Under the pieces are notes generated by a model. That model was not told the origin of the DNA and searched no databases. It saw only the letters and a list, made by a program, of their open reading frames with translations. This document shows, piece by piece, positions 1 through 40,684 of a stretch of 64,000 nt of DNA. Both the position numbers and the translations under genes were made by a program. This DNA is from a virus, in the IMG/VR virus record IMGVR_UViG_3300042519_001698. One strand, 5' to 3'. Every line of letters starts with the position of its first letter. Within the stretch, counting starts at the first letter, position 1.

Positions 1-680
1 AGTTGGGGTCTGAGTCGGCGTTTCGGTTGGGGTCTCAGTATTTGTAGGTGTAGGAGTATTAGTCGGCGTTTCGGTATTGGTTGGAGTTTGAGTTGGTGTT
101 TCAGTTTGTGTAGGCGTAGGTGTCTGAGTCGGCGTTTCAGTATTTGTTGGTGTAGGTGTCTGAGTCGGCGTTTCAGTTGGTGTTTCAGTATTAGTTGGGG
201 TTGGTGTATTGGTTGGAGTTTCAGTATTAGTAGGCGTTTGAGTTGGTGTCTCACTTGGTGTATTAGTAGGCGTTTGGGTCGGTGTTTCAGTATTGGTTGG
301 TGTAACCGTATTAGTAGGCGTTTGAGTTGGTGTCTCGGTATTAGTTGGTGTCTGAGTTGGTGTGTTGGTCGGTGTAATAGTATTGGTCGGCGTTTGTGTA
401 GGTGTACCTGTTGGGGTCCTTGATGGTTCTATCGACTGTACCAAAGTTCCAGTTGGTGTATGGGTTGGTGTAACGGTTGGTGTTTGTGTATTAGTAGGGG
501 TATTCGTTGGTGTTTGTGTATTAGTAGGGGTATTTGTCGGCGTAACTGTATTAGTCGGTGTCTGACTAGGTGTAACAGTCTGAGTTGGAGTCTGAGTTGG
601 TGTGGATGTATTGGTTGGTGTAGGTGTAGGTGTAGCCTCATTTGTTGGAGTCTGAGTTGGTGTTGGAGTTGGAGTTTCAC
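1..680 (-). repeat. Degenerate coding tandem repeat encoding (TPT/TQT/TNT)n
   Basis: The plus strand shows recurring gttgg/ggtgt/gtcgg units; the minus frame reads [10 protein letters not shown]... Confidence 0.9.
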
Positions 681-31916: not shown

Positions 31917-31924
31917 TATAAATA
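31917..31924 (-). promoter_or_regulatory. Candidate late promoter TATTTATA
   Basis: 10 nt upstream of the 31906 start. Confidence 0.6.
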
Positions 31925-31930
31925 GATATT

Positions 31931-33961
31931 TTAGTTAGTTTTTTTGAGTACTTTCTGTGTACTATCAAAACTTTTTGGTTTGTTATTAATTTTAAGTCCT
32001 ATTAATTCTAAAGATTGTAAATTCTTAGACCAATGTTTTGTCATTGCATCCATAGTTGAATCACTTGCTGTAATTGTATGTGTTATATCAACCTTTTGAG
32101 TTGTACTATCTGAAGTGTTGTTTTTATTTTCAATATTTGCATTAGTAGTGGTACTATTTTTAGCCTCAATTTTAGCGTTCTCACTTTTACTATTTTTCAT
32201 CTCAGTAACTGTTAGTTCATTTGGTGTGACATTTCCATAATATTTACTTAATGTATTTTGAGCTTGCTTTGTTACATCATTTATTAAATCTTGAGTAGAT
32301 TTATTTTTGGATATCTCAATAGTTGACATGTTTTTAGCAAAGTCATTAGCCGCGTCACCCAATGTTTTACCCGGCCCACTTCGTCTAAGTTGATTTTGTT
32401 GTTGGATATACATCGCACTAATTACATTCAGAATTTGAGTGGTTGCGTTGAATTGTCCTCTAGCAATATCTTCAGGTTTCATTGCCTGAATTTTCTTTTG
32501 TTCTTCAATAATTTGATTTCTCTTAGTTACATCAATCTTTGCAAATTCCGCAAATTCAATAAATCCATCTTTTACTTTATCTACTACTCCAAATTTTTCA
32601 GCTACTTCAGCAGGAATACTAATACCTATTTTACCATCTTTCATTGTTGAAAGATTCTTAATAAACTCTTGTTGTTCTTTAGAAGCTTCGGGGAATATTG
32701 AACGTATTTGACTCATGGCTTGAAATTGAACGTTAGCTTTAACCGCTAAACTTGTCAAATCACCCATTGATATACCAAATGTATCTGCCATTGCCTTAGC
32801 TCTTCTTAAATTCGCACCGGTAACTTCAAATCTACCTTGTGCCGAATTAAATGTTGCTAAACTTTTTGATGCGTTAATTAAACTTGTTTGTAAACCCTCA
32901 ACGTTATTTGTCGCATCGTATATCATTCTTAATGGATCACCAAAATCACCAATGGCACCACCAATCATAGATAAATTAGCCGCCATATCTATTGCTTTAT
33001 TTGGATCAAATAAATCGTTGGCAATTTTAAGTGTATTATCCATATTGAAATTAAGGGATTGTGCTTGTTGTGACATTCTTGTTAAACCAGCAACACCTCC
33101 CTGAAATCCAAATTCATTTAATTTACCTATATTTTTAACTAATGTTTCAGTTAATACTTTTGCATTTAATCCTAATTCTAATGTTTTTTGTCCCGCGGTG
33201 GTAATTACCTTTGCCGCATCTTGTAAACCATATCCAACATTTCTAAAAGCTTCATTATTTTCTAATAAAGTAGTGGACGATTTAGTATATGCAATTGACG
33301 CTTTAACACCCTCACTAATGGCTTCTTTACTATATAAAGCCATTCTACCTGAACTAGTTAATAATATTTCAGTAGATTTTAAGAAATCATCAACAGTCAT
33401 TCCGAGTTTAGTTGTTTCAACCATTGCATCATTCAACTCCTCTCTCATATTTCCACCTAAATCACCAACGAACGCACCTGATTTATTGGTTACATCAATT
33501 AATCTAGATTGTGTTTCAGCTAAATCCTTTAGAAACTTTGTCGCTAATGCACCACCCGTACTAAACATTTCGGTAAACAGTCCTGGTATATTTAAACTTG
33601 CAAGGTTTGAAACTCCACCAGCAACACCTCTTAATATTGTTGAAAAAGTATCAACACTAAGTCTATTACTGGAATTACTTAAATTATCATAAAAATTAGC
33701 TAAAGTAACATCAGCCGCGGTCTTCATTCCCGCATTTAATATTTGTTGACCACCTTGTAAATAACCTCCCACACCACCTAAACCAGTACCACTACTCGTA
33801 GTACTACCAGCACTTGCGGTGGATTGACTAGCTAAATTACCTAAAACACTTTGATTACCCCCATTTACAAAAGATTGGGCGTTCGAACGCCCAAGACCAA
33901 ATTGGTTCTGTAATATTCCTTGTAATTGAGTTTGTTGTTGGGGGTTTAATCCATTAGCCAT
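31931..33961 (-). CDS. Tape measure protein
   Basis: 676 aa, Ala/Gly/Leu-rich and helical; canonical position after the tube and chaperone genes. Confidence 0.75.
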   Translation of the reverse strand: MANGLNPQQQTQLQGILQNQFGLGRSNAQSFVNGGNQSVLGNLASQSTASAGSTTSSGTGLGGVGGYLQGGQQILNAGMKTAADVTLANFYDNLSNSSNRLSVDTFSTILRGVAGGVSNLASLNIPGLFTEMFSTGGALATKFLKDLAETQSRLIDVTNKSGAFVGDLGGNMREELNDAMVETTKLGMTVDDFLKSTEILLTSSGRMALYSKEAISEGVKASIAYTKSSTTLLENNEAFRNVGYGLQDAAKVITTAGQKTLELGLNAKVLTETLVKNIGKLNEFGFQGGVAGLTRMSQQAQSLNFNMDNTLKIANDLFDPNKAIDMAANLSMIGGAIGDFGDPLRMIYDATNNVEGLQTSLINASKSLATFNSAQGRFEVTGANLRRAKAMADTFGISMGDLTSLAVKANVQFQAMSQIRSIFPEASKEQQEFIKNLSTMKDGKIGISIPAEVAEKFGVVDKVKDGFIEFAEFAKIDVTKRNQIIEEQKKIQAMKPEDIARGQFNATTQILNVISAMYIQQQNQLRRSGPGKTLGDAANDFAKNMSTIEISKNKSTQDLINDVTKQAQNTLSKYYGNVTPNELTVTEMKNSKSENAKIEAKNSTTTNANIENKNNTSDSTTQKVDITHTITASDSTMDAMTKHWSKNLQSLELIGLKINNKPKSFDSTQKVLKKTN

Positions 33962-33983
33962 TGTGTCGTATTAATATATCATC

Positions 33984-33991
33984 TATAAATA
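33984..33991 (-). promoter_or_regulatory. Candidate late promoter TATTTATA
   Basis: Upstream of the tape measure gene. Confidence 0.6.
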
Positions 33992-33993
33992 GT

Positions 33994-34143
33994 TTATTGG
34001 GAATTTTCTTCATTAATAAACATGATAATATTATTACGCTCGTGTATTGGCATAATGAGAAGATCTCTATAGGTAAATCCTCTATGTACTAAATTGGTAA
34101 TTGCTGATATTTGTTTTTTCTTATACGCCGTAGAAAGGACGAA
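33994..34143 (-). CDS. Unannotated 49-codon ORF in the +1 frame of the chaperone gene (gp51-like / lambda gpT-like extension)
   Basis: FVLSTAYKKKQISAITNLVHRGFTYRDLLIMPIHERNNIIMFINEENSQ*; no ATG start ahead of it (only TTG at 34164); fills the gap before the tape measure gene. Confidence 0.7.
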   Translation of the reverse strand, partial: FVLSTAYKKKQISAITNLVHRGFTYRDLLIMPIHERNNIIMFINEENSQ

Positions 34144-34867
34144 AAAACTCCACCCCGAAGTCAATATAAGCTTTGACTGTGTCTCCTGACGGGGTTTTTA
34201 CATCTACTGACAAATCAATGCCGGGTTTATTATCGTTTGCAAATTTTCTAAATTCTTGAGAATCTCTAATTGGTAAATTTTGAATAAATTGATAAATACC
34301 CATTTGGTCTCTCATACCATCGACCGACTTAATCATCATTTCAAGTCTCTTTGTAGTTACGGGAGCGACAGAGGTCGATGAATTATCTCTTATTTTAATT
34401 AAATCTTTTTCTTGAATGTTATTCAAATACTTAAAAGTAATATTCTTCTTTGAAATATTCATAAAAAATGAATATTCTCCGTTTTCATCGGGTTTTAAGT
34501 TAAAATCTCTCACTTTTAAAATTGATAGGTCTAACGCAAATTTAAATGGTAAATTGGTTTTAGTGTCAATCATCTCCATTTCGTATTCACTACCAAATGC
34601 GGTATTTCTTAAAAATATTAATATTGCTTGTCTATCTTCATCTACTAATTCATCAATATTGAAGTCTTTATCTAATATTTTTCTTTTAAGTAACTCTTCA
34701 ATTACAGTATCACTCTGTAATAAGTTTGGTGCTACCAAGATATTTTCATCGGATGCTGTTAAGTAAGCAACCCTTAAACTTTTTTTATTATTTGCGTAGA
34801 AAATACCTTTACTTGGTAATTCCACTACATCGTAAGAAATTGTTGGGTCTATATTATAATTTTCCAT
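34121..34867 (-). CDS. Tail/baseplate-hub assembly chaperone, T4 gp26-like
   Basis: YDVVELPSKGIFY...LTASDENIL; ends DFGVEFFRPFYGV; located between tube and tape measure. Confidence 0.75.
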   Translation of the reverse strand: MENYNIDPTISYDVVELPSKGIFYANNKKSLRVAYLTASDENILVAPNLLQSDTVIEELLKRKILDKDFNIDELVDEDRQAILIFLRNTAFGSEYEMEMIDTKTNLPFKFALDLSILKVRDFNLKPDENGEYSFFMNISKKNITFKYLNNIQEKDLIKIRDNSSTSVAPVTTKRLEMMIKSVDGMRDQMGIYQFIQNLPIRDSQEFRKFANDNKPGIDLSVDVKTPSGDTVKAYIDFGVEFFRPFYGV

Positions 34868-34918
34868 ATAGTAAGTTTAAACTATAATTATCTAAAAGTA
34901 AAGTTTCTACATAACAAA

Positions 34919-34950
34919 AAACCGATACCCTTAAATAGGAATATCGGTTT
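34919..34950 (-). terminator. Terminator downstream of the tail tube gene
   Basis: AAACCGATA...TATCGGTTT stem followed by a T run on the minus strand. Confidence 0.75.
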
Positions 34951-34971
34951 CGTATGTGTATTCGTTTTATC

Positions 34972-35460
34972 TTAGTAAACTTGGATACATCTATCCATTC
35001 TTAAAGTACATGTGATTGTCGCTAATTCATCTCTTGAGTAATCTAAATCTCCAAAATTTAAGTCTTGGATGAAAGTACCTTGTAAAATCCATTTCTCAAC
35101 CACAACTCCCGTTGGGTCTAACATCTCAAGTTCAATATCTTTCTTATAACCCGCAGCATATCCCATACGACCTGTTACAGACTCCGCATGTAAACGGAAC
35201 CATTCCATCAACGCTTGTGACGCTGAAGGTCCAATTGGGTCTTTAAATGTTACCTGCATCGTTTCCCACTCAAATCTACCAGCAACATAAGTTGAGGTGT
35301 TCAAGAAAGGAATTGCTACTGAGTTAATTTTAGCACTAGGTCTTTTAGCCGATGTTACGTACCATTCATTAATACCCAAAGAAGATGGGAAACGAACAAT
35401 AAATCGGTTTTGTCTTTTCGGTTCATATGGAACCGGCATTTTCATTAATAAATCTGCCAT
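34972..35460 (-). CDS. gp19: Tail tube protein, T4 gp19-like
   Basis: YEPKRQNRF...WETMQVTFKDP...YKKDIELEMLDPTGVVVEKWILQGTF. Confidence 0.9.
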   Translation of the reverse strand: MADLLMKMPVPYEPKRQNRFIVRFPSSLGINEWYVTSAKRPSAKINSVAIPFLNTSTYVAGRFEWETMQVTFKDPIGPSASQALMEWFRLHAESVTGRMGYAAGYKKDIELEMLDPTGVVVEKWILQGTFIQDLNFGDLDYSRDELATITCTLRMDRCIQVY

Positions 35461-35499: not shown

Positions 35500-35507
35500 T
35501 ATAAATA
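35500..35507 (-). promoter_or_regulatory. Candidate late promoter TATTTATA
   Basis: Upstream of the tail tube gene. Confidence 0.6.
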
Positions 35508-40595: not shown

Positions 40596-40684
40596 TATCT
40601 ATAAATATCTTTGTTTTTATCAAAGATTTCCGTACTTTTTTTTAAAAGATAGTAATTTATCTTTTTTTATCTTTATTTATCTTT
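40596..40684. promoter_or_regulatory. Phased TATCTTT repeats (candidate operator)
   Basis: Direct copies at 40658, 40668, 40678 (10-bp period) and 40606; inverted copy at 40645; partial copy at 40596. Confidence 0.5.
40600..40607 (-). promoter_or_regulatory. Candidate late promoter TATTTATA
   Basis: Upstream of the tail sheath gene. Confidence 0.6.

Follow-up and report, generated by a model that had tools for sequence, protein, structure and literature searches.

The gene for a gp26-like baseplate-hub assembly chaperone in IMG/VR virus record IMGVR_UViG_3300042519_001698 is very probably recoded into its +1 frame, as judged from its sequence and those of its relatives. The DNA analyzed was a stretch of 64,000 nucleotides (nt) from an uncultured lake-water giant phage, here called the window, and the shift locus lies on its minus strand. 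Besides the short form of 248 amino acids (aa), which ends at the frame-0 stop codon, a change of frame at a run of six uridines would give a long form with an additional C-terminal domain. What would be new is a frameshift of the tail-chaperone type in another protein family (PF12322) and in the +1 direction; literature searches for a gp26/gp51 frameshift found no report.

Conservation of the shift site and the +1 frame

On the minus strand the gene ends with GAG (34150-34148), TTT (34147-34145), TTT (34144-34142), CGT CCT TTC TAC GGC GTA and the stop codon TAA (34123-34121), and the T6 run that the original prediction had placed at 34147-34142 agrees with the sequence. Its claim that the +1 frame is open across this run down to 33994 held as well: a 56-aa open reading frame (ORF) occupies 33994-34164 (-) with the peptide as first written, and the TTG at 34164 is indeed the sole upstream initiator of this ORF in the window. 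Reading TTTC as one step, in a single event at F242, gives a product of 290 aa, the fusion of about 290 aa that had been foreseen. The T6 run alone is of little weight because the window, with a G+C content of 31.7%, holds 183 T6/A6 or longer runs.

The weight comes from 80 related metagenomic IMG/VR loci with protein identities of 59-94%, from which 69 unique genes were taken for codon use, 60 unique contexts for start codons and 53 unique extension sequences for alignment. The T6-C run is present in 79 of the 80 loci; the sole exception, L023, has UUC-UUU-C plus a gained U5 run six bases downstream. Nearly all 80 loci keep the +1 frame open for 48-52 codons (the sequence of two loci ends before the stop codon of the ORF), and the -1 frame closes after 12-30 codons, its length varying among loci. 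Beyond the frame-0 stop the other two frames contain 3.4-3.5 stops per 36 codons, the codon-position entropy of the +1 frame is 0.88/0.54/1.31, and the 53 unique +1 peptides align without indels at 38-92% identity. These measures indicate that the +1 frame is protein-coding. A sequencing indel as the cause of the split frames is excluded by the agreement of 80 independent assemblies.

Codon use at the site is as constrained as the run itself. F242 is TTT in all 69 unique genes and F241 in 68 of them, and R243 is CGN in 68/68, while CGN accounts for 5.6% of the arginine codons elsewhere in these genes, whose usual arginine codon AGA (497/636) never occurs at R243. Downstream, F245 is TTC in 69/69, P244 exclusively CCY and G247 GGA in 63/69; these frozen codons preserve L/P-S-T-D/E in the +1 frame. 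As the frozen positions are synonymous sites of frame 0, they imply that reading of the +1 frame has begun before the frame-0 stop is reached. A +1-frame stop directly 5' of the run was found in 16 of the 60 contexts, which together with the frozen synonymous sites on the 3' side brackets entry into the +1 frame to the run itself. Alignment of the relatives also recovered the expected pattern of a retained U-run that reads as F-F-[R/W]-P in frame 0 but as F-F-x-L in frame +1.

The further expectation that the downstream ORF would have no conserved start was borne out by the 60 unique contexts, among which no start position common to all was found. Sixteen of them lack ATG, GTG and TTG alike ahead of Phe-Phe in the open +1 frame, and 11 have none up to codon 12 downstream.

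Relation of the two predicted forms to T4 gp26 and gp51

The assignment of the gene as gp26-like was confirmed at the level of family and fold. The 248-aa protein scored 26.3 bits with Pfam PF12322 'T4_baseplate', above the cut-off of 24.5, and matched phrog_150 'baseplate hub' with an E-value of 3.4e-10 over residues 14-243; its homologs (n=3263) are nearly all 246-249 aa long and end in EFFRPFYG-x. The AlphaFold2 (AF2) model of the short form (pLDDT 84) has a beta-hairpin and a helix at EFF as its final elements, and its comparison with BFVD yielded 62 matches at E <= 0.001 to annotated gp26/gp51 proteins ('baseplate hub subunit / assembly protein'), with TM-scores of up to 0.81. T4 gp26 and gp51 belong to the same family (E-values against PF12322 of 9e-64 and 4e-52, respectively) and have been listed as hub assembly chaperones by Leiman et al. 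(2010, PMC3004832), who describe gp51 as an essential protein whose function is unknown and which is missing from the particle; a need in hub assembly together with absence from the virion is known for T4 only. T4 gp26 (208 aa) aligns with gp51 (249 aa) from the N-terminus (E 2e-6), and gp51 has about 45 additional C-terminal residues. Along the 282 positions of phrog_150, gp26 covers 14-235 and the short form of the window 16-233, while gp51 covers 13-280 and the fusion 16-280. Moreover, the AF2 model of gp51 (pLDDT 92) has the same beta-hairpin and helix, followed by three further helices.

The extension was likewise traced to the C-terminus of T4 gp51, with moderate strength, as the original prediction had proposed for its 49 residues. 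Eleven of 57 members of the extension family matched phrog_634 'baseplate hub assembly catalyst' (best E 9.8e-8), a family that also takes in gp51 residues 147-246, and hhalign of the extension profile with the gp51 alignment gave an E-value of 5e-4, colinear with gp51 residues 218-249. The link is seen in profile-level tests only, since hhalign of the single extension sequence with T4 gp51 was weak (probability 0.7%) and BLASTP of the fusion against T4 gp51 gave no match. Because the paralogs gp26 and gp51 differ by a C-terminal domain related to the extension, we take the short form as the counterpart of gp26 and the predicted 290-aa form as that of gp51. Hence the idea of gp26-like and gp26-gp51-like products is supported as far as two forms are concerned, but T4 encodes gp51 as a full-length paralog of gp26 and not as a small downstream gene. 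The window and T4 thus share family and fold, and the short form ends where T4 gp26 ends; the difference is that T4 has two separate, divergently transcribed paralogs without recoding, whereas here one gene would give both. Identity is too low for a BLASTP match between the window protein and T4 proteins.

A search of 1.84 billion representatives with the extension profile returned 97 proteins, almost all of them short ORFs with ad hoc starts, and no in-frame fusion of about 300 aa. One fragment of 158 aa (P0125) carries the gp26-like body and the extension in one frame, joined through an indel some 10 codons ahead of the run; it is an error or else a fused variant that occurs naturally. Another protein of 303 aa (P0030), encoded on a 1.1-kb contig, joins a lysine-rich N-terminus to a gp26-like C-terminal part and is probably a chimera. 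Sequence searches of the PDB with both profiles found nothing, and tblastn with a distant extension ORF found just two phage records.

Occurrence in distant relatives

Distant relatives, which are 25-32% identical or were reached solely via the extension-domain profile, carry the domain off-frame at the same place. In both Flavobacterium phage immuto and Microcystis phage Mel-JY01, the sheath and tube genes are followed by the gp26-like gene, a small ORF and the tape measure gene. It is the +1 frame that carries the domain, at UUU-UUU-UGG in Mel-JY01 and contigs L096 and L097, at UUU-CUU-UGG in immuto and at UUU-CUU-UAC in contig L098, so that all +1 sites have a YUU codon followed by U or C and permit re-pairing from YUU to UUY. 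The T4-like cyanophages (Kyanoviridae) P-SSM2, S-PM2 and Syn9 as well as pelagiphage HTVC008M have the same two modules in the same order. They differ in that a separate small gene is annotated, a short 'gp51' placed after gp26 in the -1 frame. It is preceded by U-UUU-UUC or U8, and the stop comes 0-1 codons after the run. The gp26 of these phages ends S-F-F-x-stop, with the T-run at the same Phe-Phe position. In P-SSM2 and S-PM2 an ATG is located 3 nt past the gp26 stop. Syn9 and HTVC008M have no ATG ahead of the conserved part, and the annotated gp51 starts at an internal ATG and is hence truncated, which suggests an unannotated -1 frameshift.

It is conceivable, at somewhat less than an even chance, that the recoded pair of short and long form is ancestral to the whole gp26/gp51 family of T4-related phages and that the separate genes 26 and 51 of T4 are derived. 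If so, T4, long the exception to tail-chaperone frameshifting, would gain counterparts of gpG and gpGT, and some lineages would use the same Phe-Phe U-run for a +1 shift, others for a -1 shift. The conserved 5' RNA stem described below would then be the stimulator in the clade of the window, whose host apparently does not use Shine-Dalgarno sequences.

Proposed mechanism and alternative explanations

A +1 slip of the P-site tRNA on the ribosome is probably the best mechanism for reaching the +1 frame. It is preferred because the interrupted UUU-CUU-U runs of relatives are ill-suited to homopolymer slippage of RNA polymerase or to a -2 shift. The P-site tRNA can re-pair one base forward in the manner of Escherichia coli prfB, from UUU to UUC here and from UUU to UUU or CUU to UUU in relatives. 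In the scheme that we infer for the nature, direction and efficiency of the shift, most ribosomes would stay in frame 0 up to UAA and release the short form, and a fraction would shift at GAG-UUU-UUU-CGU. There, peptidyl-tRNA-Phe (anticodon GAA) would occupy the second UUU with a rarely used CGN codon in the A site and would move one base forward onto UUC, replacing a G-U wobble pair by a G-C pair. Translation in the +1 frame for 48 codons would then yield the 290-aa long form with the junction E-F-F-V-L-S-T, ending in a helix-loop-helix domain related to the C-terminal domain of T4 gp51. Following this, we propose that both forms may act together as chaperones for the assembly of baseplate hub, tape measure and tail tube.

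The tRNA complement and the initiation pattern give the decoding context. Two related giant phages, G001 (a contig of L031; 310 kb, with terminal repeats) and G002 (a contig of L013; 251 kb), carry 34 and 23 tRNA genes, respectively, which are clustered and cover nearly all amino acids, including an ordinary tRNA-Phe(GAA) and tRNA-Arg(ACG) that decode both codons of the shift site. Shine-Dalgarno-like motifs were present within 20 nt upstream of 2 of the 44 long ORFs in the window, and the upstream regions of these 44 ORFs are A/T-rich, with A enriched at -3 and from -11 to -13, a pattern that fits a Bacteroidota-type host. A Shine-Dalgarno element of the prfB kind was considered and rejected on its spacing of 8 nt instead of 3 nt and on the 2/44 genes with such a motif.

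Directly 5' of the run, RNAalifold predicted a candidate structure (Table 1) with an outer stem of the consensus RCCCCR pairing with YGGGGU. In the stem alignment 99% of the cells are paired, one pair occurring as AU in 21, GC in 21, GU in 8 and otherwise in 2 cases, and Gly238 is GGG in 69/69 genes as compared to about 10% elsewhere. The folding energy is -12 to -16 kcal/mol with modest z-scores of -0.6 to -2.5, a tree-aware covariation test of the stem was not significant (p >= 0.125, with 4 independent pairs on supported branches), and a search of Rfam found no family at the shift site. The stem may stimulate the shift.

Several observations weigh against these interpretations. The fusion gains just 0.1 bit over the short form on phrog_150, and the hhalign comparison of the extension profile with the gp51 alignment reached a moderate probability of 31%. 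The tRNA-Arg(ACG) of the relatives reads CGU, CGC and CGA, so that the A-site codon is maybe not slow in infection; a distance of 8 nt, instead of 3 nt as in prfB, separates the conserved GGGG from the P-site codon; and the known 3' stimulators of frameshifting are absent at the site. Finally, the conserved G+C stem is located 5' of the run, as are known stimulators of transcriptional slippage, and the T6 run is uninterrupted in the clade of the window, where losing a U or shifting by -2 would lead to almost identical products.

The last two points bear on transcriptional slippage, in which RNA polymerase would lose one U on U6, perhaps assisted by a nascent-RNA stem ending 4-5 nt upstream, so that some of the mRNAs would carry the fusion in a single frame, with the same product as a +1 ribosomal shift. 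This explanation, though unlikely, would accommodate the uninterrupted T6, the conserved G+C stem directly 5' of it with its frozen GGG (69/69) and one covarying pair, and also the relatives' domain in the +1 or -1 frame off U-runs, as loss or gain of a U would permit; a stem-loop-dependent slippage that Penno et al. reportedly described in 2015 is alike in arrangement. However, UUU-CUU-U stands at this position in two independent distant lineages, and homopolymer slippage is impossible on it; the z-scores of the stem are modest and its tree-aware covariation is non-significant. Moreover, for bacterial RNA polymerase to slip efficiently, a T6 run is short. Contigs from four lake-water RNA libraries of one study, with a relative about 95% identical across 33700-34900, show the T6 without an indel, a finding at the consensus level with possible DNA carry-over that is uninformative on rare slipped transcripts.

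A -2 ribosomal shift within U6 would have the P-site tRNA-Phe re-pair two bases back and would place three Phe in the junction, EFFFVLST. Re-pairing would be perfect on the U6 of the window, and the original prediction cites a -2 shift for the tail chaperone genes of phage Mu, but re-pairing would be poor or require first-position wobble in L023 (UUC-UUU-C) and in the relatives with UUU-CUU-U, where +1 works in all cases; -2 shifts are also rare in bacteria, and we give this explanation little credence. That the small ORF is a gene of its own, initiated at TTG 34164, at a non-standard codon or by re-initiation past the frame-0 stop, is still less probable. A TTG does stand there in the window and at -8, -6, -4 or -2 in up to 33 of the 60 contexts, gene callers predict short ORFs at the site, and P-SSM2 and S-PM2 offer the ATG mentioned above. 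Yet the TTGs are by-products of frame-0 codons, a universal start is missing as described for the 60 contexts, selection on the +1 residues starts right at the U-run, and T4 gp51 has the domain fused to a gp26-like body. That UUUC is read as one Phe by a dedicated tRNA whose anticodon has four bases can scarcely be credited: related giant phages carry 23-34 tRNA genes, but all tRNAs detected by ARAGORN in G001 and G002 have three-base anticodons (part of the tRNA regions of G001 having been scanned), and the window contains no tRNA gene.

Comparison with known recoding systems

Programmed frameshifting of tail chaperones is among the most conserved features of long-tailed phages, and Xu, Hendrix and Duda are said to have described it in 2004 as conserved in the tail assembly chaperones of these phages. 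The gene described here resembles lambda gpG/gpGT in its location between the tail tube gene and the presumed tape measure gene, in its conserved slippery run, in the predicted short and long products and in a second ORF without its own start. It differs in that chaperones of the G/GT type shift by -1 on an X-XXY-YYZ heptamer, whereas the shift proposed here is +1, and in its protein family, PF12322. Foldseek of the short-form model against the PDB gave no match. With VIA-align the same model ranked YqbN (3klu, Z 5.1) and the HK97 chaperone (2ob9, Z 4.9) as 2 and 3 of 48,161 chains over residues 128-215, both below the trust level of Z 8; the gp51 model gave just generic helix-loop-helix matches to residues 205-250, the list being filled by the helical tail, and YqbN and HK97 were not repeated. 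The short-form model (m27fdbaa1dd81) looks like a tandem of small alpha/beta domains, one formed by residues 3-100 and nearest to 3fgx (Z 6.2), the other by residues 128-215 and nearest to YqbN and the HK97 chaperone (Z ~5), which hints at a duplicated chaperone-like fold.

Among +1 systems, prfB and influenza A PA-X shift by forward re-pairing while a slow codon occupies the A site. The relatives' CUU-U resembles the CUU-UGA-C of E. coli prfB, where the P-site tRNA also re-pairs one base forward; differences are that no stop codon occupies the A site here and that the G-run lies farther from the P-site codon, as noted above. PA-X (UCC-UUU-CGU) has the same UUU-CGU site but is eukaryotic.

If the proposed +1 shift is real, gp26 and gp51 would be two forms of one chaperone, so that their roles in hub and tape-measure assembly could be framed as a concrete hypothesis, and thousands of metagenomic and several cultured phage genomes would have a mis-annotated or missing product at this place. 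It would furthermore represent a widespread natural +1 site (UUU-UUU-C/U, UUU-CUU-U) beside a -1 site at the same protein position, and this +1/-1 pair would allow the determinants of shift direction to be studied in a natural system.

Gene order and neighboring features

A DNA search of a phage collection gave no match to the window, and the phage is without a close sequenced relative in it. On the minus strand the tail tube gene is followed by the 248-aa ORF, a 676-aa ORF and a 1617-aa ORF (Table 1). The 676-aa gene is, by gene order alone, a candidate tape measure gene: its position is that of the annotated tape measure in Flavobacterium phage immuto, and in pelagiphage HTVC008M one extra gene intervenes. 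For the 676-aa protein no family match and no significant similarity were found, and NCBIfam gave no match for any of the four proteins searched.

Table 1. Coordinates of the features at the probably recoded locus and in related phages.
Feature	Position	Strand	Basis or remark
Shift site UUU UUU C	34141..34147	-	T6 at 34142-34147 and C at 34141, first base of the CGU codon
+1-frame extension, gp51-C-terminal-like helix-loop-helix domain	33994..34140	-	48 codons from GUC at 34140, stop at 33994-33996
Candidate 5' RNA structure	34152..34195	-	Outer stem ACCCCG (34195-34190) with CGGGGU (34157-34152); inner hairpin 34178-34173 with 34164-34159; RNAalifold
gp26-like baseplate-hub assembly chaperone gene (short form), 248 aa	34121..34867	-	ORF, PF12322, phrog_150
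Tail tube gene (gp19-like), upstream	34972..35460	-	phrog_4542, E 4e-28; PF06841, 27.4 bits, just below the cut-off of 28.2
676-aa gene downstream, candidate tape measure	31931..33961	-	Position only
Region with the short 'gp51' of Syn9	L094:1601-1792		
Region with the short 'gp51' of HTVC008M	L095:1567-1760		
Region with the short 'gp51' of P-SSM2	L092:2700-2891		
Region with the short 'gp51' of S-PM2	L093:2670-2864		
tRNA clusters of G001	299-310 kb and 246-249 kb		
tRNA cluster of G002	44-52 kb		

Right behind the tail tube stop, at 34925-34960 (-), a G+C-poor hairpin AACCGATA ... TATCGGTT is followed by T6 and looks like an intrinsic terminator between the tube and chaperone genes; if real, it would reduce expression of the chaperone relative to the tube protein. 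The box TATTTATA is absent ahead of the chaperone gene and occurs at 33984-33991, 35500-35507 and 31917-31924 (-), 11-40 nt before the starts of the 676-aa, tail tube and 1617-aa genes, with a fourth copy at 40600-40607 (-). Over the whole window 22 copies of TATTTATA were counted as compared to 15.3 ± 3.7 expected, a marginal enrichment, and the copy at 33984-33991 is a candidate promoter of the presumed tape measure gene.

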